Source of the DNA: Spirochaetia bacterium | Lineage (GTDB): Bacteria > Spirochaetota > Spirochaetia > SZUA-6 > Bin103 | NCBI GenBank assembly: GCA_965198005.1 | Contig: CBDAOI010000004.1 | Coordinates: 1,856,001-1,920,000 of the forward strand | Direction: 5' to 3' | DNA length: 64,000 bases | Notes under the pieces: generated by a model | What the model was told of the DNA's origin: nothing | What the model saw: the letters and a program-made list of their open reading frames with translations, nothing else | Database searches by the model: none | Position numbers and translations under genes: made by a program | In this document: piece by piece, positions 2,230-45,646 of the stretch | How the letters are laid out: each line of letters begins with the position of its first letter | Position numbering within the stretch: position 1 is the stretch's first letter

Positions 2230-3228
2230 CGAATATGACCTTAAATCACCCTTCTCCCCCTTGTCTTTCATGATAGGTAGGCTGGCTAAAAGCTGGGAAA
2301 CGCCTGACGATACAACGATTATCTTCAACATCCGGCAGGGCGTTCACTGGCATAATAAGGCGCCGATGAACGGTCGGGAGCTAACCGCCGATGATGTCGA
2401 GTACAACTTCCACCGCATGACGGGTATGGGCAAGTTTGCCGACGCCGGACCCGTCCCGTTTGGTGGCGCAGCCAATCTCGTCTCCATACCATGGGAATCG
2501 ATAACGGCCACCGACAAATATACGGTTGTTATACATAATGCCTCCCGAAGTGATCGAGCAACTACCGGACCCTGGATGCTGGCTGACATAGTCGATGGGA
2601 GCTCTATAACCTATTCCAAGAATCCTGACTACTGGGGCTACGACGAAAAATACCCGCAGAACCGCTTGCCCTATGCCGACGATCTCAGGTGGCTGATTTT
2701 TCCAGAGTCAACAACAGCTGTGGCAGCACTACGCTCAGGCAAGCTTGATTTCAGTCGGTTTGTTTCTACTCTCGACTCGGTACTGAGTCTGGAGCGGACC
2801 AACCCGGAAATCGCGGCCCACGCGATTTGGTTTCGGTCGGATGTCGCTCTTGCTACTGACGTGCGCAAGCCGCCCTTCGATGACATCCGCGTGCGCAGGG
2901 CGATGCAGATGGCACTGGAGGTTGGTATCGCTCGGATGCACAGTGGAACCGCCCCGGATCCCAGTGGCCTGAGTTGGACGCCATGGTTGACGCCGCCCTA
3001 GCCGCTACCACCATGGAGGAGCAGGAGAGGCTGATTGCAGAGGCAGACATGTACGCTATAGAGAATCACTGGCAGATATGGGGTCCCAAGAGTCCATTCT
3101 TTATCTTGGCCCAGCCGTGGCTCGTAGGCTATGACGGTGAATCAGACGAAACCTTCGGAGACTATGTGCAAACTTTGTTTGCCCGCCTCTGGATTGACAG
3201 TGAGCTGAAGAAAGCAATGGGTCATTAG
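2230..3228 (+). pseudogene. Family-5 (Opp/Dpp-type) ABC substrate-binding protein, 5'-truncated with several internal deletions and frameshifts
   Basis: Collinear pieces matching the 14147-15939 paralog (IRQGVHWHNKAPMNGRELTA, NPDYWGYD, KPPFDDIRVRRAMQMAL, WIDSELKKAMGH*), with blocks missing near 2530-2565 and 2915-2980. Confidence 0.85.
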
Positions 3229-3327
3229 TGCCTGCTCTCGGGGATAACTGAAGCGTCTAACGGAGCTGGGGGGCTCAAACCCCCCGGGTTTCGGAGTATA
3301 TACCGCGATGGCAGGAAGTAGTGTGAT

Positions 3328-3783
3328 ATGAGGGCCTATATCATCAGGCGGTTATTGCTGATGATCCCCATTTTGTTCATATTGAGCATTCTGGTATTTT
3401 TTTCGGTTCGCTTCATACCCGGCGATGTCATAAACACAATGTTGGGTAAGGGGGAATTCTATGGTGAGGTGAAACGTGAAGCTCTTGAGCGTATGCTGGG
3501 ATTGGACGTGCCTGTGCATGTGCAGTATGGACGCTGGATAGGAGTGTTGCCGACCCCTGACTGGGTTACCGGTGAGTCCCACTTCAAAGGTCTCCTCCAG
3601 GGCAGCCTTGGCCACTCACTACTTGGCAGCCGGGAGGCGGTGGAGGAGAAGATAGTAGATAGACTGCCAGTGACCATTGAGCTTGGTGTCCTGGCAATGG
3701 TGATTGGTCTGGTGATAGCGGTGCCAGTCGGCATCTACTCGGCGATTCGCCAGGATACAGCCACCGACTACGCTGCGCGTACT
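3328..3783 (+). pseudogene. OppB/DppB-type permease, 3'-truncated
   Basis: MRAYIIRRLLLMIP...GIYSAIRQDTATDYAART closely matches 16164-17167, then homology stops at a fused HTH fragment. Confidence 0.85.
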
Positions 3784-3975
3784 CTTGAGTGTCCCCAAGG
3801 GCACGCCGATAGTTCTGGCGAAGGCGGGTTGTGACAGCCCCGTCTTGCCGCGGATGGAGCAGACATCGGGCTCGGGCACCTCAATGTCGTGCATTCCGAA
3901 CCCGTCTCGCTCGCCATTCAAATAGGCGTGTGCATCCTCAAGCCCGGCCATAACTCTATTGAATGCCGTGCTCAT
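3781..3975 (-). pseudogene. HigA/YiaG-type HTH antitoxin, truncated within the HTH
   Basis: MSTAFNRVMAGLEDAHAYL...DVCSIRGKTGLSQPAFARTIGVPLGTLK; the expected WEQG continuation is absent; GGAGG RBS upstream. Confidence 0.75.
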
Positions 3976-11974: not shown

Positions 11975-12970
11975 GTGGCTGTCGGCACGTTCGATCTTCT
12001 CACTCCGCACGTCGCCATGAGCGCACTCGAATCGGTCATCGCCACCCGCGTGGACGGGGCGCTGACCGGCTTCCCGAGCTACGTCAACCGGGTCTACGGC
12101 TTCGGCGGCGAAGACGGGCGGCAGTATGTGGCCAAGTTCTATCGGCCGGGCCGCTGGTCGTACGAGGCGATCATGGAGGAGCACGACCTGGTCGGCGAAT
12201 GCGCTGCGCTGGAGCTGCCGGTGGTGGCGCCGCTGGCCGACGCGGACGGCGAGACGCTGCACCTGGTGCACGCCGTGACGGGCGCCGCGGAACAGGAGTA
12301 CCAGTTCGTGGTCTACCCCAAGCGCAGCGGGCGCAACTTCGATGCCGACCGCGACTCCGACTGGCTCCGCATCGGGGCGCTGGTCGGCCGGCTGCACCTG
12401 GCGGCCGCGGCCGGCACCGCCCGCCACCGCATGGTCTGCACGCCGGCCGCCTCGACCGCGCGCTTCCTGCAGGAGCTGGCTGCGGCGAAGGTGGTGACGC
12501 CGGCCGCGGCGCCGGAGTTCTTCGACCTGGCGGCGGCCGGCATCGAGCGCATCGAGCCGCTGTTCGACGGCGTGCCGCGGCAGCGCCTGCACGGCGACTG
12601 CCACCGCGGCAACATCCTGGACCGGGCGAAGGAAGGACTGCTGATCATCGACTTCGACGACATGATGGTCGGCCCGGCGGTGCAGGACCTGTGGCTGCTG
12701 CTGCCCGGCCGCGTGCACGACAGCCGGCGGGAGCTGGCGCTGCTGATCGAAGGCTACGAGCAATTCCGGCCGTTCGACTGGCGCACGGTGGCGCTGATCG
12801 AGCCGCTGCGCCTGATGCGGATGATCTACTACCTCGCGTGGTCTGCCCTGCAACGCCACGACCGCCGCTTCCTGGAGTCCTTCCCGCAGTGGGGCGCTCC
12901 GGCATTCTGGATCCGCGAAATCGAGGACCTGCGCACCCAGCTCCGCGTGATCGACGATGGCCTCGGCTGA
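11975..12970 (+). CDS. srkA: Serine/threonine protein kinase, SrkA/RdoA family
   Basis: SYVNRVY, VAKFYRPGRWS, LHGDCHRGN, DFDD, QDLWLLL, FPQWG. Confidence 0.88.
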   Translation: MAVGTFDLLTPHVAMSALESVIATRVDGALTGFPSYVNRVYGFGGEDGRQYVAKFYRPGRWSYEAIMEEHDLVGECAALELPVVAPLADADGETLHLVHAVTGAAEQEYQFVVYPKRSGRNFDADRDSDWLRIGALVGRLHLAAAAGTARHRMVCTPAASTARFLQELAAAKVVTPAAAPEFFDLAAAGIERIEPLFDGVPRQRLHGDCHRGNILDRAKEGLLIIDFDDMMVGPAVQDLWLLLPGRVHDSRRELALLIEGYEQFRPFDWRTVALIEPLRLMRMIYYLAWSALQRHDRRFLESFPQWGAPAFWIREIEDLRTQLRVIDDGLG

Positions 12971-13027
12971 TTCAATGAACCGGTTGCAGCTTGACTTGTC
13001 GGAGGTAGGGCAAGACACTCGATTCGC

Positions 13028-13747
13028 ATGTTGACCCGGCTACAGGTTTCCGGTTTCAAGAACCTGGTCGACGTGGATCTCCGCCTTGGTTCGTTTACCT
13101 GCGTAGTCGGGCCGAACGGGGCGGGTAAGTCGAACCTGTTCGACGCGATTCGGTTTCTGAGTGGACTGGCCAACGGCATCTCATGTTTCCCCACAGTGCA
13201 AAGGACTGGCGCAAGTCCGTCGTGCGGGGTCGGCGGAGCGCGCACCACTTCATCTCAACCGAGGGGAGGGTGAGAACCGCGTGATCAAGCTGCATCAGGA
13301 TGGCGGCAGCAGTGGACGTCCGTTGCTGCCGGACGAATTGGCCGGACGAATTCGTTTCTCCCACCCACCTGGGAGCCGACGGACGTCATCTTGCGGCCAC
13401 GCTGCACCGGCCGGCGCGCAAATCAGGGAAGCATGGGCATGGCGGCAACGGGCAAGCTCCGGGTGAGAGCCTCTATGGGGCAGCTTCCAACGCCGAGCGC
13501 GAACAAGTGTATGGCCACGTCACCAACCGCTGCGGGGCACCGTTTCAAGAAAGCACAATTCCTGTGTTTGTCGGATACCTGGCGAGCGCAAGAGAGCGAC
13601 TATGCCGTTCGTGGTGAACTTCTCGCATATCTGAATCCGGTGCTGCTCGAGGCACCGGGAGAATCGGCGGTCAAGAAACGGGTCGTCGATAGAGAAGACA
13701 TGCAACAGGCAGTTTCCTTATTAGTTCGGCATCTGTGCAAAGATTGA
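13028..13747 (+). pseudogene. AAA_21/ABC-type ATPase, shredded by several internal deletions
   Basis: MLTRLQVSGFKNL...GPNGAGKSNLFDAIRFLS Walker A, then out-of-frame pieces IKLHQDGGSSGRP, PTHLGADGRHLAATLHR, EQVYGHVTNR and C-terminal DTWR...RGELLAYLNP...RVVDR; no Walker B. Confidence 0.8.
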
Positions 13748-14022
13748 GATACACGTTGGTGGCAGATGGCGCGTCTGATCGCGCCTTGATCCCAATTCTC
13801 ACGTGGCTATTGAAGAAGTTCTGCGGTGCTCTTGCTATCCAGCCAGAGTATTCTGACCTGCGGCGTCTGAGGAACCCACCGAGGAGACTCTCTGAACGTA
13901 TCGCAAGGAGTATTGAACTGTATCCTTGCGATATGTTATTCGCCCAATCTCGGATCGACGAAATATCTGCGGCTCTCCGGCAGAGTCAGATAAGTACACC
14001 GTCTGTAGTGTGTGTAGTTCCC
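13735..14022 (+). pseudogene. ATPase-partner protein (DUF4276/TOPRIM-like), N-terminal half
   Basis: LRYTLVADGASDRALIPILTWLL...IELYPCDMLF...VVCVVP then TAG; overlaps the ATPase 3' end; continuation at 18451. Confidence 0.7.
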
Positions 14023-14146
14023 TAGCCACTGCTCCGTCTGGCTGCTACGAAATGCTCCACACGGTCGCGCGTTGCGGGCCCGAGAGTAGCCAGAGAGCGG
14101 CAATCCGCTACGGAATACTCTCGAAATAACATTCAAGGAAGAAACG

Positions 14147-15939
14147 ATGAAGATATTTTTTCAAGGACCTTCGCGATTGCGTTGGTCCTAGTTCTGACCG
14201 CGACCGGCCTCTGGGCCGCTGGCGCAGAAGAGGAACCCGCAGCCGCTGCCGATAAGAAGTATGTCACCGACCCCGTCACCGGCAAGGTGTACTCCGCGCC
14301 AGAGTATGGCGGGACAGTCACGGCTGCCATGCGAATCCCGAAGGACGCTGTTGACCCCGCTGTAGGTGGAGGGGCCAACACGATCAGCATGATCGTTAAT
14401 GAGAAGCTAGGCCAGTTGAACTGGGCACTAGATAGGGACGCTTATTCTTTTACCGGCGGCTACATGACGCCTGTATACGCCCTAATCGGGGCGCTGGCTG
14501 AAAGCTGGTCGCAGCCCGACTTACTGACGTATATCGCCAATATCCGCCAGGGCGTTCACTGGCACGATAAGGCACCGATGAATGGGCGGGAGTTAACTGC
14601 CGAGGATGTAGAATATAACTTTCACCGAATGTTGGGTATGGGCAAGTTTGCCGACGCCGGACCTTGGCCCACCTTAGGGGAATTCGGAGCTGTGGCTTGG
14701 GAATCGATAGAGGCCACCGACACATGGACGGTTGTTTTCAAGCTGAAGGAGCCAAGTCTCCGTGCCCAAATGCTTATCTTGGACGGCCACCTTCAGATTA
14801 TACTGCCCCCCGAGGTAATCGAGGAACACGACGACATTTCCGATTGGAGGAACCTGGTTGGCACCGGGCCTTATGAGCTGACTGACTGGGTCAAAAACAG
14901 TTCTCGTGAATACACCAGGAACCCTAACTACTGGGGCTTCGACCCAAAATACCCGGAGAACCGCTTGCCCTATCTTGACAAGATACAGGAACTTCTTATC
15001 CCGGAAGTGTCAACACGTCTGGCGGGAATGCGCTCGGGTAAGCTCGATTACATAGGACATGGGGGCGCCACTCAAATAGGGGTGGTGGACCAAGCATTGA
15101 GTCTCATGCGGACCAACCCCGAACTCCAGCTGTACCCGTGGTCGCAACGATCGGATTCCGCTGCTCATATGAACGTGTCCAAGCCTCCCTTTAACGACAT
15201 CCGGGTGCGCCGGGCAATGCAGATGGCCCTGGACCTCGAGACAATGGACGCATCCTACTTTAAGGGGTATTCAGATTGGATACCCATGGGACTAGTAGGC
15301 AGGGCTGCCAAAGGGTATATGACCCCATATGAAGAGTGGTCCGACGAGCTCAAGGGATACTATGCCTATGACCCGGAAGGGGCCGAAGCGTTACTTGATG
15401 AGGCCGGGTATCCCCGCGGCGCCGACGGCATTAGATTCAAGACCGCGTACATGCACCTCCCCGTGGCTCCTTTGGGCTTGAGAGAATTCATGGCTGCATA
15501 CTGGCTAGAGATTGGCATTGACGTCGATATTGAGGCACTTGAGTTGGCAGAATGGGTAGCTAGAAGGAATAATAAGGATTTTGAAGTGCAGCACGCCTCC
15601 ACGGGCTTCGACCTTGATCCAATGGGTTCAGCAATGAATCTCTTTTACTCGAAAGGCACGTCGTGGACCACAGTCGTCGACGCTCAATATGACGCCTGGT
15701 ATGAAGCCGCCTTGGCGGCTACGACTTTGGAGGAGCAGAGGGACCTGATCAAAAAGATGGACATGCGCTCCATAGAGCAGGCCTGGTTCATCTGGGGACC
15801 CACGGCTCAATCGTTTAACGTGGCCCAGCCGTGGGTGATGGGTTATAACGGCGAAGGCATCGTAGGAGGAAGCGCGAATCGTCATGTCTGGAAATTCCTC
15901 TGGATTGATGGTGAGATGAAGCAAGCAATGGGTCATTAG
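14147..15939 (+). CDS. Family-5 ABC substrate-binding protein with a frameshift in the signal-peptide region
   Basis: RBS AAGGAAG plus ATG at 14147 is out of frame with the 585-codon ORF; one extra base in the T6 run at 14156-14161 restores MKIFFSRTFAIALVLVLTATGLWAAGAEEE; SBP5 motifs LAESW, VGTGPY, PFNDIRVRRA. Confidence 0.85.
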
Positions 15940-15959
15940 TGGCTGAACCTAGGAAATAA

Positions 15960-15989
15960 GGAGCTGGGAAGCTCACGCTTCCCAGCTCC
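15960..15989 (+). terminator. Intercistronic stem-loop after the SBP gene
   Basis: GGAGCTGGGAAGC-TCAC-GCTTCCCAGCTCC, perfect 13-bp stem without a U-tract; related hairpin at 3262-3292 after the paralog. Confidence 0.6.
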
Positions 15990-16163
15990 CACACACGATG
16001 TCATTGCGAGACGTGCCTTCCCAGAAAACGCAACCATTCGAAATTTCGCTGGATTCCCGCTTTCGCCGGAGTGAGAGGAGCCAACCCGTATCTGATACGG
16101 GGTTGGGGTATACACCACAATGACAAAGGGATTGGCGGGGGAAATTGCAATGATGGGTGTGAC

Positions 16164-17167
16164 ATGAGAGCCTATATCATCAGGCGGCTATTGCTCAAAT
16201 CCCCACCCTGTGGATATTGACCATCATAGTCTTTCTCTTGGTCCGATTCATCCCCGGCGATATAATTGACGTAATAGAGGGCAGGATGGAATACTCTCAA
16301 CCCGGCACGATTGACCGTGAAGCTGTTGAGCGTATGCTGGGATTAGACGTGCCTACCTACGTGCAGTATGGACGCTGGATAGGAGTGTTGCCTAGCCCTG
16401 ACCGGATTACCGGTGAGTCCCAATTTAACGGTCTCCTCCAGGGCACCCTTGGCGAATCACTGTTTGTCGGCCATTTGACGATAACGGAGGAGATATTAGG
16501 TGGATTGCCGGTAACCATTGAGCTTGGCGTCATGGCAATCGTAATCGGGATAGTGATAGCGCTGCCAGTCGGCATCTACTCGGCGATTCGCCAGGATACT
16601 GCCGCCGACTACGTGGGGCGCTCCGTCGCCATCATCGGCATGGCAACGCCTAACTTCTGGCTCGGAATCATGGTCATGATGTTCCCGGCAATCTGGTGGG
16701 GCTGGTCGCCGCCGATGAAGCTGATTCTTTTCTCAGAAGACCCGTTAGGGAATCTTGGGATGTTCCTCATTCCCAGCGTGATTCTGGGGACGGCCATGGC
16801 GGCCGGCACGATGCGGATGACGCGCACGATGATGCTGGAGGTGCTCAGGCAGGACTATATCAGGACGGCCTGGTCTAAGGGTCTCAATGAGAGGGTAGTT
16901 GTCCTGAGACACGCCGTCAAGAATGCATTCATACCGGTAGTTACCGGGATAGGTATGCAGTTGCCTATCCTGATAGGTGGCTCCGTTATCATGGAGAATA
17001 TCTTCAACCTGCCGGGATTAGGTCGTCTCACGGTGGATGCACTCAGTAACAGGGACTACCCGATGGTCTCCGGAATAAACCTGGTTTTCGCCACAATGGT
17101 TGTAGGGGTGAATTTAATGATCGACCTGATTTACCCGTACTTAGACCCCAGGGTCCGATACAGCTAA
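16164..17167 (+). CDS. OppB/DppB-type permease with a 1-nt deletion at codon ~12
   Basis: ATG 16164 MRAYIIRRLLL then CTC AAATC CCC versus paralog CTG ATG ATC CCC; downstream frame has DYIRTAWSKGL, IFNLPGLG, DPRVRY. Confidence 0.85.
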
Positions 17168-17169
17168 AA

Positions 17170-18117
17170 GTGGAAACCGGGGATGTGAGTGACGCCACAG
17201 GGATACCATTACCAGTAGTCCAGCCAAAGAGACGTACGAGGCTGGCTGATTTCTTCATCAGGCTGGTCAGAGAGAAGCCGCTGGGTATAGTCAGCGGGAT
17301 TATCATATTGATATTCATTCTGGTGGCTATATTTGCCGATGTTCTGGCGCCTTATGGATATAGGGAAGTGCACCCGGCAGACGTACTTGAAGCCTCTTCG
17401 GCCCGGTATCTTCTGGGCACTGACCACTTGGGGCGAGATTTATTGAGCCGCCTTATCGTCGGGGCGCGTCTTTCGTTAGGTGTCGGTCTGGCAGCGACCG
17501 TTGTTAATGTTGTCGTCGCTGTCCTGATCGGTGGCACTTCAGGATTCCTTGGGGGTAAATTGGACTTGGCTGTGCAGAGATTTGTTGATGCCTGGATAGC
17601 CTTACCGGGGCTGCTCATATTGTTAACGGTAATGTCCATAGTGGGGCGTGGTATACCACAGATAATACTGGTCCTGGGGATATCAGGGGGCATCGGCGGC
17701 TCAAGAATAGTCAGAAGCGCCGTTATGGGTGTAAAAGAGAATGACTATTTTCAGGCGGCGGACGCGATTGGTTCCTCAAAATGGAGCGCATTCATGCGGC
17801 ATGTTTTGCGCAATATTGTGCCTGTCCTAATCATCATATTCAGCATCAACATCGGGGGGGTGATTATGAGTGAGGCTTCTCTGAGTTTCCTCGGATTCGG
17901 CCTGCCAGCCCAGATTCCTAGCTGGGGAGGTATGCTCAGCCGGGAAGGACGCACCTACATGGAGATGGCGCCATGGCTAGCTCTCTGGCCTGGTGTTTTC
18001 CTGACTATCGTCGTTTACTGTCTAAACATATTCGGCGACGCCATCAGGGACCTCCTCGACCCGCGGCTGCGGGGTGGCGGTGGTGGTCTCGGTGCCGGAG
18101 CCGCCGGGTCGGTTTAA
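17170..18117 (+). CDS. OppC/DppC-type permease
   Basis: LGTDHLGRDLLSRL, EASLSFLGFG, PSWGGML, GDAIRDLLDPRL. Confidence 0.92.
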   Translation: METGDVSDATGIPLPVVQPKRRTRLADFFIRLVREKPLGIVSGIIILIFILVAIFADVLAPYGYREVHPADVLEASSARYLLGTDHLGRDLLSRLIVGARLSLGVGLAATVVNVVVAVLIGGTSGFLGGKLDLAVQRFVDAWIALPGLLILLTVMSIVGRGIPQIILVLGISGGIGGSRIVRSAVMGVKENDYFQAADAIGSSKWSAFMRHVLRNIVPVLIIIFSINIGGVIMSEASLSFLGFGLPAQIPSWGGMLSREGRTYMEMAPWLALWPGVFLTIVVYCLNIFGDAIRDLLDPRLRGGGGGLGAGAAGSV

Positions 18118-18450
18118 GAGAGCCCGCCTGGGGGCCACGCGCCTGCGTGCGGGGCCGTGCACCCCACCCGAGGTTGGTACGAGACCCTGCGCGTCCTCGA
18201 CATCCCTGATGGCGGGAGCCCCCAGCGATATCACGCCGGCACGGTGACCTCCACCCGCGGCACCCTGGAGTCCGCGACGATTCAGCCCAGCGGCGCCGGG
18301 CCCTTAGGGAATCGCCACCGCTCCTGCCACCGTGCCAATGCCTCTCGTCGGTCGCTTCGCACGAAACCGTTGCCGAAGCGGCGTTCGCCGCTACTCGAAG
18401 TCCTCTCGGGAATTGACTGACGACCGCTCCTCGAACCAAAGACGCGCTAC

Positions 18451-18768
18451 GTCTGGTTGCTCATTGATGAAGCTGCGTTGAGGCAGGCCGCGGGGAATCC
18501 GAATGGCACGGAGCCACTGAACCTGCCTGGTATTCAGCAACTCGAACAGTTGCCGAATCCGAAACAACTGCTATACACTCTGTTGCGTCAGGCAAGCGGC
18601 CTTCAGGGCCGACGTCTGAAGAGTTTCAGCCCTCGAATGAACGGATACTCTGTGGCCGAGCGGATCAGCGACTTTGCTCCGCTGTACGGGCTGGATGCAT
18701 TCCGGCGGCTGGCGGGCGATTTGGATAGAGTCGTTGCAGAGAATGGATGGAAGGATGCGGCTCGTTGA
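18451..18768 (+). pseudogene. ATPase-partner protein, C-terminal half (continuation of 13735-14022)
   Basis: VWLLIDEAALRQAAGNPNG...LEQLPNPKQLLY..LLRQASGL..GRRL...DFAPL: the segment I recall following VCVVP(xxxxE) in this family; no start or RBS of its own. Confidence 0.7.
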
Positions 18769-19571: not shown

Positions 19572-19635
19572 ACGCGGGCTACGCGGCCTTGACCCGCTGC
19601 CCGTTCTCGCGCACGTTACTGAAAGGAGGGGTACT

Positions 19636-21261
19636 ATGCCGACGCTGGAGTTCAAAGGCAAGCAGCACATCTACGCTCATCACCTGACCGTTCCTTTTAG
19701 GCCGCTGCTACCCGATGAACAGCGCTCCTGCAACCCATCCGGTACCGACGACAACCTCATTATCCACGGCGACAACCTGCACGCACTGAAAGCCCTGTTG
19801 CCCCGCTACGCGGGACGCGTAAAGTGCATCTACATCGATCCACCCTACAATACCGGCAATGAGGGTTGGATCTACAACGACAACGCGAACAGCCCGCTCA
19901 TGAAGGAGTGGCTGACGGCAAACGGGCCGGTGGACCTCGAAGATCTTGAGCGTCACGACAAGTGGCTCTGCATGATGTGGCCCCGCCTTCATCTGTTGCG
20001 TGAATTGCTTGCGGAAGAAGGGATTGTTTTCGTTTCCATCGATGACAACGAACAACACCACTTGCGAATGATGATGGACGAGGTCTTTGGCGAAAGAAAC
20101 TTTTTTGCAGTACTTACACGTAGAGCGATGCACACAGTTCGCAACTCAAGCAAGGACTTTAATTTGAACGGCGACCATGTTCTGGTTTATGCTCGAGAAA
20201 AGACGTGGTTTTCGGGAGATAAGAACCGATATATTAGGCACGTTATTGAAAAATCTGGTCGCTATCCATTTGACGACGGTGACGGACGAGGAAGGTACAA
20301 GCTTGATCCGCTCCATGCACGAAACTACTATCACCCGTATTGCCACACGTTCACAAACGGCGTCAAGTGGTGTGCTCCCCGGGGGAGGTATCCTGCGTAT
20401 TCTCCAGACAGGTTAGGGCAAATGGAACTCGAAGGCAGAATTGATTTCCGTGGTGGCGAACCCAAAGTGAAACGGTACTTGAGCGAAGTACAGGAGGGAC
20501 AACCTCCCAACGTTGTTTTGTCCCCTGAAGTCGTAGGATTCAACGCAGATGGAACCCGGGAACTCCGTGAGATATTCGGAGAGGGCGGTGTTTTCTCCCA
20601 ACCTAAGCCAACCAACCTAATCAAGTTTTTCTTAGAAATAATACGTTGCAAGGATGCTCTTGTACTTGATTCGTTTGCCGGTTCAGGAACTACCGGCCAA
20701 GCGGTTCTCGCGCTTAACAGAGAGGATGGTGGCAACCGTAGATTCATTCTGGTGGAGTGTGAAGGCTACGCAGAGACCATCACGGCTGAGCGCCTAAGGC
20801 GCGTCATCGAAGGGGTTCCCGGCGCCCGCGACGAAGTTGTTCGTAATGGTTTGGGCGGGTCCTTCACTTATTCGACCCTGGGCGACCCCATCGAGCTGGA
20901 GGGGATGCTCTCCGGCGAGGCGCTGCCCCCTTACGGTGCGCTGGCCGCGTACCTGCTCTACACTGCGTCCGGCATCTCGGCAGGACCTGGCGGCGTCCAA
21001 CGCGAGAACGATGACGGCTTGTTTCACTCCTCCGAGAAACTCAACTACCACCTGCTCTACGGACCGGATCTGAATTACCTGCGCAGCGATGCCGTGGTAC
21101 TCAATGAGGAGCGCGCCAAACGGATCAGCGCCGCGGCGCGCGAGCAGAACCGGAAAGCAATCGTCTTTGCTGCCGCCAAGTACATGGGTCAGCGGGAACT
21201 TACCGAATGGGGCATCACCTTCTGTCAGCTTCCCTACGAGTTGTCGTGCCGCGCGGGATGA
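19636..21261 (+). CDS. mod: Type III restriction-modification system, N6-adenine methyltransferase (Mod)
   Basis: MPTLEFKGK, IHGDNL, IYIDPPYNTG, FSQPKP, LDSFAGSGTT; AAGGAGG RBS. Confidence 0.92.
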   Translation: MPTLEFKGKQHIYAHHLTVPFRPLLPDEQRSCNPSGTDDNLIIHGDNLHALKALLPRYAGRVKCIYIDPPYNTGNEGWIYNDNANSPLMKEWLTANGPVDLEDLERHDKWLCMMWPRLHLLRELLAEEGIVFVSIDDNEQHHLRMMMDEVFGERNFFAVLTRRAMHTVRNSSKDFNLNGDHVLVYAREKTWFSGDKNRYIRHVIEKSGRYPFDDGDGRGRYKLDPLHARNYYHPYCHTFTNGVKWCAPRGRYPAYSPDRLGQMELEGRIDFRGGEPKVKRYLSEVQEGQPPNVVLSPEVVGFNADGTRELREIFGEGGVFSQPKPTNLIKFFLEIIRCKDALVLDSFAGSGTTGQAVLALNREDGGNRRFILVECEGYAETITAERLRRVIEGVPGARDEVVRNGLGGSFTYSTLGDPIELEGMLSGEALPPYGALAAYLLYTASGISAGPGGVQRENDDGLFHSSEKLNYHLLYGPDLNYLRSDAVVLNEERAKRISAAAREQNRKAIVFAAAKYMGQRELTEWGITFCQLPYELSCRAG

Positions 21262-21271
21262 CGGATTTGCG

Positions 21272-23797
21272 ATGGAGCTGAAGGAGTACCAGGCCCGCGC
21301 GTTGGAAGCCTTCAGCCGCTGGCTGAGAGCGCTTGCGACGGCCCGGCAGGAGTGCGCAGTTTCTGTCGAAGCGTTGCACAAGGCGGGGGTGGACGTACCC
21401 GACGACATCCGCAACTATCCCGGTGCGGCCTGGCGGAAGCTGGCCGCGTCGGGCGGTGTCGCTGAAGGAGCAGGCCACTACGCCGACCGCACGGCGGACG
21501 CGGGGTTTCCGATCCCGCACGTCTGCTTCAAGGTCCCCACCGGGGGTGGAAAGACCCTGATGGCCGCGGCGGCTCTGGAACGGCTCAACCGGCCGACCGG
21601 CCTTACGCTCTGGATCACGCCGACCCGCGCCATCTATCAGCAGACCAGAATCGCCCTCCGGAACCGCGAGCATCCGTACCGGAACCTGCTCGAACGCGCC
21701 AGCGGCGGCCGCGTCAAGATGCTGGAGAAGGACGATCCGTTCACGGCCGGGGACGTCGCCAACTATCTGTGCGTCATGCTGTTGATGCTGCCCGCCGCCA
21801 ACCGGCAGAAGGGCAGGGAGTTCCTGCGCATGTTCCGCGATTCAGGGCGCTACCCGACGCTGTTCCCCGACACCGATGACCTGCTCGGTGACGGACGTCT
21901 GTTGCAGAAGTTTCCCGACCTGGAATGCACCTCCGCGGACGGCCCGATCAAGCACAGCCTGTTCAACGTGTTCAAGATGCTGCGTCCGGTAGTCGTGCTC
22001 GACGAAGCTCACAAGGCGTACGGGAAAGCCGAGGCCGCACGCGAGTTCGTGCGTTCGATCAATCGCCTCGACCCGAGCTTGGTACTGGAGTTGTCGGCTA
22101 CGCCGAACCGTACCATCAGCAACCTGCTGGTCGACATCTCCGGCGTCGACTTGAAGAACGAGGAGATGATCAAGCTTCCCGTGCGCGTGGAGTCGTTCAC
22201 CAACGCCGAGTGGCAACGCACGTTGGGGGAGGCGGCCGAGGAACTCAAGCGGCTGGAGGATGAGTCCCGATCCCTGCACATGAGCGGCGGCCGCTATATT
22301 CGCCCGATCGCGGTCGTGCGTGTGGAGCGCACCGGCAAGGAGCAGCGCGACGGCGAACGGGTTCACGCCGAAGACGTCCGCGAGTACCTGCAGCGAAGCC
22401 TTGGTGTTCCTTCCGAGGCGGTGCGGGTCAAGTCTGCCGAGCGCGACGAGCTGGGACGCGAGGATCTGCTCTCCGAGTTTTCGCCGGTCACCTGGATCAT
22501 CACCAAGGCGGCCCTGATGGAGGGGTGGGATTGCTCCTTCGCGTACGTATTGGTGATGCTGGACAACACCAGCGCTCAGCGCGCCATCACGCAACTGGTT
22601 GGTCGAGTCATGCGGCAGCCGTATGCGCGCCGCACGGGGCGCGAGGCTCTGGATCGATGCTACGTCTACTGCTGGAACACGGAGGTGGCGGCTGCCGTAC
22701 AGCACGTGAAGAACGGATTGGAGCAGGAGGGACTGACCGGGCTCGGCAACGAAGTATGGGGTACTGGCGGAAGCCTGGACTTGATAGAGGTGCAACGGCG
22801 TGAGCTGTTTCGCGGTGCCGACATCTTCCTGCCGAGAGTGCTCCACCAAGACGGCGCCGGTTGGCGCGAGCTGGACTATCAACGGGATATCCTGCCGGCC
22901 ATTGATTGGGGGGCGATCGAACCACCGGATCCGAAGCAATCGCTGCCAACCGTCGCCAAGCGGGAGGCGGCGTCGGTCGACGTAGGCGATGTTCGTCCGT
23001 TCACGTACGAGGCGTCCACGTATCTTGACATCGACAAGACCGTCGAATTGTCCTACTTCGCACGGCGGTTGTCCGACGTGGTGCCCAACCCGTGGCAGGC
23101 CGCGGGCTTTGCGGCGACGCTGATCAAGCGGCTGCGGGACAATGGGGACGAAGAAGCTGACATTTACGACCGACGCTCCTATCTCGCTTACGCCCTACGT
23201 GAAGCAGTCATCAACGAGGTCAAACGAATGGCGGAACAGGTGTTCCATGAAAAGCTGCGAAGATGCGACATCCGTTTCGACCTGGACGCCGACGTGCCTC
23301 GCTACCGAATACGCGAAAGCTACCAGATACCCGTGTCGGAATCAGACGGGTCTCTGCAGCGGCTCGGACGGCCAATGCAGCTCAACCTGCTCGACCCGGT
23401 ATTCGAGCGCCAGTTCGATTCCGAACTGGGAAAACGTTTCGCGTACTATCTCGACGAACAGAGAGCGCTGCGCTGGTGGCACCGTGTGGCCGTGCGGCAG
23501 CAAGGCGAGTACCACCTGCGTGGTTGGCGTCGGGAGCGGATCTACCCCGACTTCATCGCGATGGCGGGAGAGACCGCCGGCAAACCGCATCTCCTGGTAT
23601 TCGAAACCAAGGGCGAGCATCTACACAACAATCCGGATACCGAATGCAAGCGCAAGGTGCTGGAGACGCTCGAGTTCACGTTCAACGCCGGCAAGATGCA
23701 CATACGCGACGGTCCGGCAAAAGGAACGTTCCGCCTGATCTTCAACGAGGCCGAGTTCTCGACGGCACTGAACCGCGTAAAGACCTACACCGCGTAG
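21272..23797 (+). CDS. res: Type III restriction-modification system, Res helicase-endonuclease
   Basis: KVPTGGGKT, VLDEAH, LSATP, LMEGWD, QLVGRVMR, C-terminal PDFIA...FETKG nuclease motif. Confidence 0.9.
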   Translation: MELKEYQARALEAFSRWLRALATARQECAVSVEALHKAGVDVPDDIRNYPGAAWRKLAASGGVAEGAGHYADRTADAGFPIPHVCFKVPTGGGKTLMAAAALERLNRPTGLTLWITPTRAIYQQTRIALRNREHPYRNLLERASGGRVKMLEKDDPFTAGDVANYLCVMLLMLPAANRQKGREFLRMFRDSGRYPTLFPDTDDLLGDGRLLQKFPDLECTSADGPIKHSLFNVFKMLRPVVVLDEAHKAYGKAEAAREFVRSINRLDPSLVLELSATPNRTISNLLVDISGVDLKNEEMIKLPVRVESFTNAEWQRTLGEAAEELKRLEDESRSLHMSGGRYIRPIAVVRVERTGKEQRDGERVHAEDVREYLQRSLGVPSEAVRVKSAERDELGREDLLSEFSPVTWIITKAALMEGWDCSFAYVLVMLDNTSAQRAITQLVGRVMRQPYARRTGREALDRCYVYCWNTEVAAAVQHVKNGLEQEGLTGLGNEVWGTGGSLDLIEVQRRELFRGADIFLPRVLHQDGAGWRELDYQRDILPAIDWGAIEPPDPKQSLPTVAKREAASVDVGDVRPFTYEASTYLDIDKTVELSYFARRLSDVVPNPWQAAGFAATLIKRLRDNGDEEADIYDRRSYLAYALREAVINEVKRMAEQVFHEKLRRCDIRFDLDADVPRYRIRESYQIPVSESDGSLQRLGRPMQLNLLDPVFERQFDSELGKRFAYYLDEQRALRWWHRVAVRQQGEYHLRGWRRERIYPDFIAMAGETAGKPHLLVFETKGEHLHNNPDTECKRKVLETLEFTFNAGKMHIRDGPAKGTFRLIFNEAEFSTALNRVKTYTA

Positions 23798-23869
23798 GAG
23801 CGAGGAGCCTGATCTTGGCGGGAAAACGAGCTGCGAACTTGCATGAGATCGTATTCGGGTGCGCGCCGC

Positions 23870-24334
23870 GAGCAACCCCTTGATGGTTCGCACCTGCCCC
23901 TCCCGGCGGCCTTCCCGGCGGCCTTCCCGGCGCCCTCGCTCGATCATTTCCTCCACGTAGTTCATCACCTCTCCTCCGCGGCCCGGCACGTTCCTCCGCA
24001 ACGCCTCCGAGAACAGCTTGCGCTGTGCTTCCGGCTGCGTCGCCAGCACGTACTCCACGTACTTCGCCACTTCCTCGAGCTCCTTGGCGCGGTACAACTC
24101 CCCAATCAACCGCGTCACCCATTCCAGCAACTCCTCCGGCGCTTCCCGAAACGCCGCCATCAGCGCGATCTGCAACACCCGCGCCGCTACCGCGCCCGTC
24201 ACCGATTCCGCGCCCAGCTCCGTCTGGTCGATCAGCAGGTGCTCGAAGCTCGGTACCCACCGCCACTCCGGCGCCGCGTCCACTACGAGTTCCGCGAACT
24301 CCGGCTCGTAGTCCCACCGCTGCGCTCACTGATA
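23870..24334 (-). pseudogene. Rpn/YhgA-like (recombination-promoting nuclease) C-terminal fragment
   Basis: YQ*AQRW (TGA at 24326-24328), WVPSFEHLLIDQT, GGEVMNYVEEMIERGRREGRREGRREG repeats; N-terminal nuclease domain missing. Confidence 0.75.
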
Positions 24335-24562
24335 GCGCCCGAAAACCGCCGCTCTCAGCGCCGCTTTTCGCCCAGCCGAGCCTCTCTCTCGGAGCTGTCG
24401 TATCCGACCAGCTCCGGTAGTGTCGGTACCGTGCGCTACCACACAGAAAGAACGCACCCGAGAACGATCCTCGGACTGCCTCTCCTCAATCGGCCAAGCG
24501 CTCCGACTCATCCGTGAAGCACCGCCGTCCGCGCGCAGTTATCCGTAGTGCGGGTACCAACC

Positions 24563-25552
24563 ATGCTCCACGACGAAAACTACAAGCGCCTGTTCGCATT
24601 CCCGCTCATGGTCGAGCACCTGCTGCGCGCCTGCCTCCCCGGTGATCTGCTGGCCGCGGCAGACTTCTCCACCCTGAGCAAGCTCTCCACCGAGTACGTC
24701 AGTGACGAGCTGCGCAAGCGCCACGGCGACAACGTCTGGCGCCTGCGCCTGCGGCGGCGGCGGCGCTGGGCGTATGTGCTGGTGCTGCTGGAGTTCCAGT
24801 CCGAAGACGATCACTGGATGGCGCTGCGCATCCAAACCTACGCCGGTCTGCTGTACCAGGAGCTGGTGCGTAACAAGGCGCCCGAGGTGGCCGCCGGACG
24901 ACTGCCGGCGGTGCTGCCGGTGGTGCTCTACAACGGCACCGGGCGGTGGAAATCGGCGCGGGAGCTCGGCGGGCTGATTGGGCCGCTCGGGGCGTGGCTG
25001 GCGCCGCCGCAACCGGCTCCGCGCTACTACCTGCTTGACGTGCAGCGCGTAGCGGGGGACGATTTGCCGCCGCACAACCTGCTGCGCGCGGTGGCGGGAC
25101 TGGAGCAGAGCCGGTTGCCGGAGGACGTGCTGCGGGTGTGGGAGGCACTGCAGCCCTGGTTGCGGGACCGGCGGGAGCGGGAGTTGCAGCGCGCGTTCGT
25201 CGATTGGGTGCGGCTGATCGTGGAGCGGCTGGCGCCGGCGGGTACACCGCTGCCGCCGATGCGGACGTTGGAGGAGGTCAGAATGACACTGGTGGAGCGG
25301 GTAGCCGAGTGGCCCAAGCAGTGGCTCCGGGAGGGTCGCGAGCAGGGACTGGAGCAGGGACTGGAGCAGCAGCGGGCGCTGCTGTGCCGGCAGGCGGCGG
25401 CGCGCTTCGGTGCCGCCACGGCTGCCCGTCTGGCCGGCGCGCTGGCGCCGATCGCCGATCCGGAACGGCTGGCCGAGGTCGGTGACTGGCTGGTGCGCTG
25501 CGACACCGCCGCCGAGTTTCTCGCCCGCGTCGATCCGGCGTCACCTTCCTGA
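24563..25552 (+). CDS. Rpn family PD-(D/E)xK protein (putative transposase / anti-phage toxin)
   Basis: HDENYKRLF, GDNVWRL, LLEFQS, LPVVLYNG..W, MTLVERVAEW..WLREGREQGLEQGLEQ, ARFG tail. Confidence 0.9.
   Translation: MLHDENYKRLFAFPLMVEHLLRACLPGDLLAAADFSTLSKLSTEYVSDELRKRHGDNVWRLRLRRRRRWAYVLVLLEFQSEDDHWMALRIQTYAGLLYQELVRNKAPEVAAGRLPAVLPVVLYNGTGRWKSARELGGLIGPLGAWLAPPQPAPRYYLLDVQRVAGDDLPPHNLLRAVAGLEQSRLPEDVLRVWEALQPWLRDRRERELQRAFVDWVRLIVERLAPAGTPLPPMRTLEEVRMTLVERVAEWPKQWLREGREQGLEQGLEQQRALLCRQAAARFGAATAARLAGALAPIADPERLAEVGDWLVRCDTAAEFLARVDPASPS
25283..25552 (+). CDS. Probable intragenic small Rpn protein (RpnS-type antitoxin) from an internal start
   Basis: GGAGGAGG-TCAGA-ATG in frame inside the rpn gene, immediately before the EQG-repeat region; 89 aa. 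Confidence 0.55.
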   Translation: MTLVERVAEWPKQWLREGREQGLEQGLEQQRALLCRQAAARFGAATAARLAGALAPIADPERLAEVGDWLVRCDTAAEFLARVDPASPS

Positions 25553-44328: not shown

Positions 44329-45646
44329 CTGCAGAAATGGGCATATCGGTCTCGAAGCCGTCGGGGTAACCAGCCTCCGCCAGAAGCTGCTTCGCCTTCT
44401 CCGGGTTATAGGTGAATGTCTCCTGAACCTCCGGTGAAAACTCCGCAATCTGTTTGATGTATCGTTTGGGCCACGGTAACGAGAGTGTGGGGTACGGATA
44501 CTCCTCTGCATTGCCACCATAGTAGTCAACCGCTATCTCTTCGGTATTCACGGCCATCGCTATGGCACGTCTCACCAGGATGTCGTCGAAGGGTTCTCTG
44601 TCAACACGTATGCTGAACCCCCAGGCGTTCCCCCCTGATCCCGCAACCTCGAGATAGTTGAGCTCGGGGTTTGTTTGCTGGAGACCTTCTGCCGTCCTCC
44701 AATCGATATTCTGCTGTTGCCCGCCCGCTAGAGCGATCTTGCCCGTCCGCAATGCCGCCATACGTGTGGATTCATCCGGCAACATCAGATAATTGAGCTC
44801 GTCGGCGTACGGTAACTGCAACTCATGGTCCGGATAACGCGGATCATTCTCCCAGTAGTCGGGATTCCTTGAATACTGCACTCTGGAGCCCGGCACGTAG
44901 TCGACCAGCATCCAGGCGCCGGTGCCGACCGCATTACGCCAATCCTCGAGGTCGCCATATTGCTTGACGACTTCGGGGGGTTGGATAACAAGGCCGCAGC
45001 CGAAGCACATCACGGCGAATGCCAAGAATGGCCGCGGGGTTTCGGTAACGATCTTTACCGTGTATCTGTCAGGTGCGGTTACCTCCGAGCCGGTCAGCCA
45101 TTCGACGTGAACGTCCCCCAGGTGCGGACTCTGTTCGGTATATCCACTGCCCAGGCCATACTGACGATGAAGGGTAAAGACTACGTCATCCGCAGTAAGT
45201 TCTCGACCATTCATCGGCTCTTTGTTCTGCCACTTTATACCCTGCCTGACGTTAATGGTGAGGGTCAAGGGATCGCTCTGCTCCCAGCTTTCAGCTATGA
45301 TCCCGTACCACTGATCCCACGTGAACATTGGACTTTGGAACTGATTATCTTCGATCGGTGTTCTAATGTCGACGGCGCCAAAAGCTTGGTAAATCCCGGC
45401 GGTAAACGGTGTCCCGGTCTGGTGATAGCGCCACTGATCCCAAGAATCGACCGCGGTGAATGCAGTAGCGATATTGAGCACACCGCCGTGTTGCGGCTTC
45501 GGCACGGTTTCACCTTGCCAGTTTACCACCATCTCTTGCTCCGTAGCGGCTTCCCCTTCTTCTTCGCCGCTTGCCCACAGTACGGTTGCGGCGGAAACGA
45601 GGATTACGGCCAGGACACTGGTCCATTTGTAGCGATTCATAGTCAC
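44329..45646 (-). pseudogene. Family-5 ABC substrate-binding protein truncated by the IS
   Basis: AGGAGG RBS, leader VLWASGEEE, IAESWEQ, PMNGRELTADD, VGTGAW, PFDDILVRRA, EAGYPDGF then the IS inverted repeat. Confidence 0.88.

Follow-up and report, generated by a model that had tools for sequence, protein, structure and literature searches.

The split HEC-01B gene and its insert

We analyzed a 64,000-nucleotide window of a Spirochaetia bacterium genome (GCA_965198005.1, contig CBDAOI010000004.1, positions 1,856,001 to 1,920,000) in which a HEC-01B-like gene is interrupted by an insert of about 4.43 kb. The insert carries a gene for a substrate-binding protein (SBP) followed by the permease genes oppB and oppC. 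The original prediction, made from the sequence alone, described this locus as a transporter cassette that moves by a new mechanism. Its observations were largely right and were partly confirmed; the cassette mechanism, as proposed, found no support, and the locus is most likely one natural scar of an illegitimate insertion.

The N-terminal half of HEC-01B (DUF4276-like; 13735–14022, forward strand) ends with VVCVVP at 14022, and the C-terminal half (18451–18768, forward strand) begins with VWLLIDE at 18451; both were placed by homologue alignment and by a PADLOC model. A search for longer proteins with the N-terminal half gave 366 matches. All 120 listed homologues, of 192–229 aa, matched both halves, so that the halves do not belong to different families, and the prediction of a single gene split with about five codons missing was borne out. 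The absent block is VRMQE in most listed homologues (bridge VRMQE-A). Homology restarts at W (18454), and a V codon occupies the position of A in the homologues. This substitution, together with the missing block, indicates that 15–18 bp of the target was lost and that the insert measures 4428–4431 bp. The N-terminal half also has an in-frame deletion of its own, of 9–10 codons.

Upstream of HEC-01B lies a decayed pseudogene of a HEC-01A-like ABC/AAA_21 ATPase (13028–13744, forward strand), recognized by family scans and by comparison with an intact orthologue, against which about 91, 45, and 133 codons are gone and frameshifts have been added. In PADLOC, the orthologous ATPase matched PDLC04184 (E 3e-94) and the HEC-01B homologues matched PDLC04210 (E 3e-29), to which the window halves align at positions 1–65 and 123–209. 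The HEC-01 gene order, with the ABC ATPase HEC-01A before HEC-01B, is present in the intact orthologue pair, and PADLOC assigns the window pieces to HEC-01A and HEC-01B as well. HEC-01 is a candidate system, and the accessible part of its description reports that the HEC-01 tested gave no anti-phage protection (10.1101/2024.01.29.577857). "Defence gene" is therefore a candidate label only.

Family scans placed three genes between the halves, all on the forward strand: a family-5 SBP gene (SBP_bac_5; 14147–15939), an oppB-type permease gene (16164–17167), and an oppC-type permease gene with an open frame (17170–18117), after which no oppD or oppF follows. The operon predicted between the halves is thus there, but its SBP and oppB genes are frameshifted as assembled. 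Read from the family start codon at 14147, the SBP frame, with one base missing from the T run at 14156–14161, meets a stop after 14 codons; read from 16164, oppB meets a stop after 18 codons, being one base short near 16197, and it is the sole copy with such a lesion among 50 matched. Both frameshifts could be assembly errors, as paralogues swamp those places in the contigs. A promoter scan of 12900–14200 found no sigma-70 sites. The captured operon lacks a leader and a promoter of its own and, as assembled, carries two frameshifts, so it is probably a passenger that is dead or dying.

The cargo has a third-position GC content of 0.57–0.67, against 0.93–0.94 in the flanking core genes. There is no near-identical donor in the genome, where the best SBP paralogue is 57% identical and the best oppB-oppC pair 83%. 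The nearest SBP relative, at 83% identity, differs in its N-terminus, which is rich in repeats and absent from this genome and from the comparison loci. Such a relative, set beside paralogues of at most 57%, indicates an exchange of the SBP body with another lineage. Among 20 clusters looked up for the donor taxon, the sole name was "Spirochaetaceae bacterium" (a 65% relative), and the Atlas leads were below 0.9. A Chloroflexota origin of the SBP is our own unconfirmed presumption.

The left end of the insert (14023–14068, reverse strand) is a 46-bp internal fragment of ritA, which encodes the first of the tyrosine recombinases in a RIT element. It is identical in 46 of 46 positions to the interior of ritA in a metagenome contig (L037, 2980–3025). 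In L037, three tyrosine recombinase (Phage_integrase) genes stand side by side over about 3.3 kb, bounded by inverted ends, in agreement with the adjacent, overlapping trio of about 3.5 kb with inverted ends given for RIT elements in the available portion of PMC3414803. The window has neither an intact trio nor RIT ends, only the 46 bp. It had been claimed that no integrase was visible at the locus, a claim that this fragment does not bear out. The stretch 14023–14068 had no match elsewhere in the genome, in 24 relatives, or in the genome_contigs collection. The genome has two further scraps of this RIT subtype (96%) at other places, and no complete copy of it was found.

The ritA piece meets the host gene with no visible shared bases and meets the family leader over six (14063–14068). 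Comparison with other leaders showed that only a 3' stump remains here (14063–14146, forward strand); the upstream block, with an upstream open reading frame (uORF) and a hairpin, is kept in 77 of the 78 other leader matches and is gone from this one.

On the right, oppC is followed by a shortened family trailer (18118–18399, forward strand; delimited by trailer comparison). It has lost 713 bp at about 18256–18266, including a 35-bp core site, and it departs from the common trailer end at 18383 to follow, up to 18399, a variant common to two other loci. The last stretch of about 50 bp (18400–18453) had no match in 91 other genomes, in the genome_contigs collection (exact 21-mer), or in the comparison loci.

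The direct repeat reported at the junctions, 11/12 between 14035–14046 and 18450–18461, is present and extends to 14/16 (14031–14046 and 18446–18461, both on the forward strand). It does not bound the insert as claimed: the left copy, which holds the reported 12-mer, begins 8 bp inside the insert within the ritA fragment, and the right copy straddles the junction, its last 8–11 bases being host-gene codons. A target-site duplication was rejected because the left copy is ritA sequence and 15–18 bp of target is missing, which removes the chief evidence offered for a new cassette mechanism. The reported lack of terminal inverted repeats held: of 453 inverted pairs, none of the longest 25 links one junction to the other.

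The junctions were checked against assembled contigs from four public runs (two studies), which may include the source sample. The right junction was bridged in all four runs, at a depth like that of the flanks. The left junction was bridged by 121 letters in one run, and the contigs of the other three stop 30 letters past it, at 14052, presumably because of a 31-letter word common to RIT copies elsewhere in the samples. None of the contig rows listed spans the full insert. All four runs show a gap of about 15 bases relative to the window somewhere in 13123–14052.

Origin of the insertion

Since both ends of the insert are leftovers of other elements, they point to an accidental DNA-repair scar more than to the ends of a mobile cassette. 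The explanation that we favour, at roughly an even chance, is that the broken HEC-01B and its insert of about 4.43 kb represent a captured fragment joined at a double-strand break by homology-independent end joining. A linear fragment would have broken from another SBP-oppB-oppC locus, be it one of this lineage or one of a relative whose DNA was taken up, and a RIT remnant would already have been fused to the leader of that locus. It would then have been joined, in one event, into a break in HEC-01B, most likely through non-homologous end joining (NHEJ) with Ku and LigD, while 15–18 bp was trimmed from the target.

Capture of a broken fragment predicts interior pieces at both ends and next to no target loss, as observed here. 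The genome has a Ku gene without stops beside an ATP-dependent ligase gene, with a LigD phosphoesterase domain 6 kb off, in a cluster of less than 7 kb (C4:657693–664051; C1 to C4 denote contigs of the genome). A ComEC domain occurs in an ORF of 506 aa. RIT and insertion sequence (IS) scraps adjoin cassette remnants elsewhere in the genome. Breakpoints between near-identical repeats were also surveyed; after 50 of 93 were dropped as unresolvable, 22 of the remaining 43 shared 0–2 bases. At the locus itself the left joint, the one at which both partners are identified, has no visible shared bases. The Ku and LigD cluster lies close to an SBP cassette at C4:652105.

Several observations weigh against capture by end joining. 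The other 21 of the 43 breakpoints share at least three bases, against about 7% expected, although some of these are IS or intron target duplications. The locus is heavily eroded by deletions, so its present ends need not be the original ones, and the unmatched 50 bp on the right could be the true end of some element. The presence of Ku and LigD is no proof that they made this junction. No empty site, which the original prediction had proposed to look for in related genomes, was seen; there is no close relative, the nearest being only 77–79% identical at the flanking gene, and none of the contig rows listed skips the insert. Finally, GC-matched random pairs, taken at three window sizes, gave a 14/16 match in 9, 10, and 29 of 4000 (0.2–0.7%) and an 11/12 match in 3, 15, and 58 of 1500 (0.2–4%). 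The 14/16 repeat is thus rarer than chance usually yields, and blunt NHEJ does not predict it; it is either a chance likeness or the trace of transient pairing during repair.

A possible but clearly less likely account is that a mobile element, RIT or other, inserted first in HEC-01B, that the cassette came along or recombined in, and that later deletions eroded the pile. The ritA piece lies exactly at the junction, and RITs have been described inside genes and in truncated combinations (PMC3414803, accessible portion). A mobility gene stands near 21 of the 48 other isolated cassettes, being among the two nearest ORFs on either side (a hand count with no background). The neighbouring ATPase has lost its three large blocks, and patchworks of 18- to 430-bp RIT, IS-like, and cassette scraps elsewhere (C4:516300–517700 and C4:1508700–1510700) show how such piles erode. 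For this order of events, however, a deletion of about 3 kb of RIT would have to stop no more than 15–18 bp from where the element went in, and the right side would call for an equal coincidence if the orphan 50 bp is not a true end. Moreover, to judge by their flanks, the RIT copies in two relatives lie outside HEC-01B and outside SBP leaders.

Integration guided by microhomology, the first of the two routes offered in the original prediction, in which the 16-bp likeness of the incoming ritA end to the host gene steered the fragment, appears improbable. It would account for a 14/16 match near both junctions, one that few random pairs reach, and would fit the enrichment of short microhomologies at breakpoints in this genome. 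After a crossover at the repeat, however, host codons should continue as far as the repeat on its left side, and ritA-upstream bases should stand on its right; the arrangement observed is the reverse. The repeat is unfit for a single crossover because ritA sequence flanks its left copy on both sides. The left join without shared bases also speaks against such guidance, as does the choice of the repeat post hoc from many junctions.

Slightly more doubtful still is mobilization in trans, by which the XerC-like recombinase or recombinases of a resident primase-recombinase element would move cassette modules at the 35-bp trailer site, in the manner of the dif modules of Acinetobacter, and this copy would later have lost its sites. 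The trailer is in part a decayed copy of the end of a 6-kb element, and it is 68–81% similar to that end. The element contains a primase/helicase-like ORF (our own label; family scans gave no match), a gene for a XerC-like recombinase that falls below NCBIfam cut-offs, an XRE gene, and, present twice, a small gene whose Atlas lead is DprA-like (0.94; family on 18% of members). The genome contains the 35-bp core 25 times; in it, a dyad of 5 bp surrounds a 6-bp spacer. Its flanks are swapped on both sides, giving 10 flank combinations, with the element end joined to three different left flanks. Inverted cores bound the primase-recombinase-XRE element between divergent SBP cassettes (for example, C4:1994291 and C4:2000286). 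These features make the core a candidate recombination site, one that is presumably unlike chromosomal dif. A hand count put 15 of 18 element traces at most 5 kb from cassette genes; of random positions, 43% are that close.

The window copy, however, has no core, and neither of its junctions falls at one. Among the 112 complete cassettes of the genome the core is downstream in nine, upstream in six, and on both sides in one, and the arms of one cassette are no more alike than those of different cassettes. The core may be conserved merely as part of the inverted ends of the element. The trans-acting recombination that had been proposed thus has some basis in a minority of the copies, but not in this one, which has lost the site. 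The element (C4:1994268–2000292 and C4:1981137–1985433; loci L082 and L174) is 94–99% identical in parts across three congeneric species, a likeness that, with a core gene only about 78% identical, indicates recent movement between them. The tip of the trailer was rejected as a transposon end; it had 19 profile matches and 18 motif matches, 13 of the latter being listed, but this end is fuzzy and lies inside a decayed gene of the element. Rfam gave no matches on four loci.

A chimeric assembly, with the cassette mis-joined into HEC-01B, is highly improbable: the cassette family is highly repetitive, no listed read or contig covers the entire insert, and two 10-kb duplicates begin at contig ends, but independent short-read contigs cross the right junction in all four runs and the left one fully in one of the four, with the other three reaching 30 letters beyond it.

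The cassette family in the genome

Strong matches across the genome numbered 150 for SBP, 144 for oppB, and 138 for oppC, with 112 complete cassettes. ATPase tails of the oppD/F type were present at four loci only (eight oligo_HPY matches genome-wide). Near-identical duplicates formed 15 pairs at 96% or more, so that duplication is ongoing and the predicted SBP expansion holds. Two 10-kb duplicates of 99.7–99.8% identity (C1:1–9968 with C4:1730466–1740448, and C2:1–10317 with C3:796493–806809), which begin at contig ends, may be assembly overlaps or very recent duplications. Two more decayed members of the SBP family occur in the window, at 2252–3786 and 44357–45622, one of them with a partial oppB. 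No description of the family was found in literature listings, subscription papers and supplements being outside that scope.

The claim that cassettes move as discrete units found no support. Both family ends are gone from this copy, and the recent copies, at 96–99%, have ragged ends and internal deletions. The comparison of cassette boundaries for shared ends or direct repeats showed the common trailer in only 22 of the 112 complete cassettes, an inverted upstream copy in 10, and both in four. We rejected an element with long terminal inverted repeats, as a wrong-orientation control gave eight cassettes against the 10 with an inverted copy, and in rankings of all arms those of the same cassette came 12th of 20, 15th of 19, and 3rd of 18. 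Retrocopying by a group II intron reverse transcriptase was considered but appears unlikely; intact intron ORFs are common, but the insert is ragged on both sides and has ritA DNA at its end. In several cassettes (for example, C1:65078, C3:760888, and C3:979496), group II intron ends, labelled from an end motif and RVT_1 matches, lie in reverse orientation directly ahead of the leader uORF's ribosome-binding site.

Cassettes had also been predicted to land in expendable defence genes. This one is inserted in a candidate, HEC-01B, but weak tests revealed no second cassette that splits a gene. None of 48 isolated cassettes had complementary Pfam halves around it, in a test that misses this locus too. 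A noisy search for empty sites based on paralogues gave, after filtering, 11 candidates from 227 blocks, none of them convincing; judged by eye, they looked like tandem units or like deletions on the subject side. In 19–22 of the 48, the two nearest ORFs per side included a toxin-antitoxin or restriction-like gene (a hand count with no background). To the extent that a weak test allows a statement, cassettes lie next to such genes more than within them.

We suggest, tentatively and as a doubtful proposal, that the 100-plus SBP-oppB-oppC cassettes multiply without a dedicated transposase: foreign SBP bodies would be grafted on a lineage-specific leader and signal peptide, fragments would be planted by Ku-LigD end joining, and a subset would be shuffled by a XerC-like recombinase at the 35-bp dif-like site. 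If amplification driven by repair is real, this locus would be a failed instance caught in the act. If capture by end joining is the right reading, the locus would offer a natural case of multi-kilobase capture by bacterial end joining, hitherto shown mainly in the laboratory, and repair, rather than transposition, would be among the sources of this lineage's very large transporter expansion. Taken alone, the locus is a single scar in a probably dead operon, and the wider biology of the family is of more interest.

A seemingly intact type III restriction-modification pair (Mod and Res; 19630–23797) lies 900 bp past the broken HEC-01 pair, and GC falls to 45–55% in its mod gene. Two ORFs on the reverse strand at 23621–25552, one of them partial, are presumably similar to Rpn/YhgA-type proteins.

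Comparison with known systems

The host genes resemble HEC-01 in pairing an ABC ATPase with a TOPRIM-like partner, and their best PADLOC models are HEC-01A and HEC-01B (10.1101/2024.01.29.577857, available text); unlike the known system, both genes are broken in the window. The cargo differs from a complete peptide/nickel-type ABC importer in its missing ATPase and its two frameshifts as assembled. RIT elements, as described in the accessible portion of PMC3414803, share with the insert the ritA sequence of its leftmost 46 bp, but the window has only this internal scrap, without a RIT end.

TIMEs and mobile insertion cassettes are non-autonomous transposons (PMC4133298, accessible text). Like them, the cassettes occur in many copies and carry passenger genes without a mobility gene of their own. 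Here, however, there are no terminal inverted repeats at the junctions and no duplication of 5–6 bp, and target bases were lost; neither inverted repeats at both ends, nor a target duplication, nor a pair of ends shared by the copies in general was found. The dif modules (pdif) of Acinetobacter plasmids, in the available part of PMC13141974, are similar to some sister cassettes in their short site with a 6-bp spacer, their inverted copies, the site common to neighbouring modules, and their toxin-antitoxin neighbours. In this genome, by contrast, the site is chromosomal, occurs in a minority of cassettes, and is gone from the window copy, which has no inverted sites bounding a module.

Homology-facilitated illegitimate recombination (HFIR), a process of natural transformation, depends on an anchor of long homology at one side. 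The present locus is like HFIR in having illegitimate joints where few bases or none are shared, and the genome encodes a ComEC domain. Both junctions, however, lie in non-homologous host-gene sequence. An HFIR product was rejected because both flanks are host-gene halves unlike the cassette DNA, leaving no anchor.

The other comparison is with NHEJ in Sinorhizobium meliloti, where Ku2 and LigD2 capture heterologous fragments at chromosomal breaks with end deletions (PMC6379672, accessible portion). The likeness lies in a foreign fragment without element ends, small end deletions, and host genes for Ku and a LigD-type ligase. The present case differs in that it is natural, is deduced from a scar, involves a 4.4-kb composite, and has a 14/16 repeat near its junctions.

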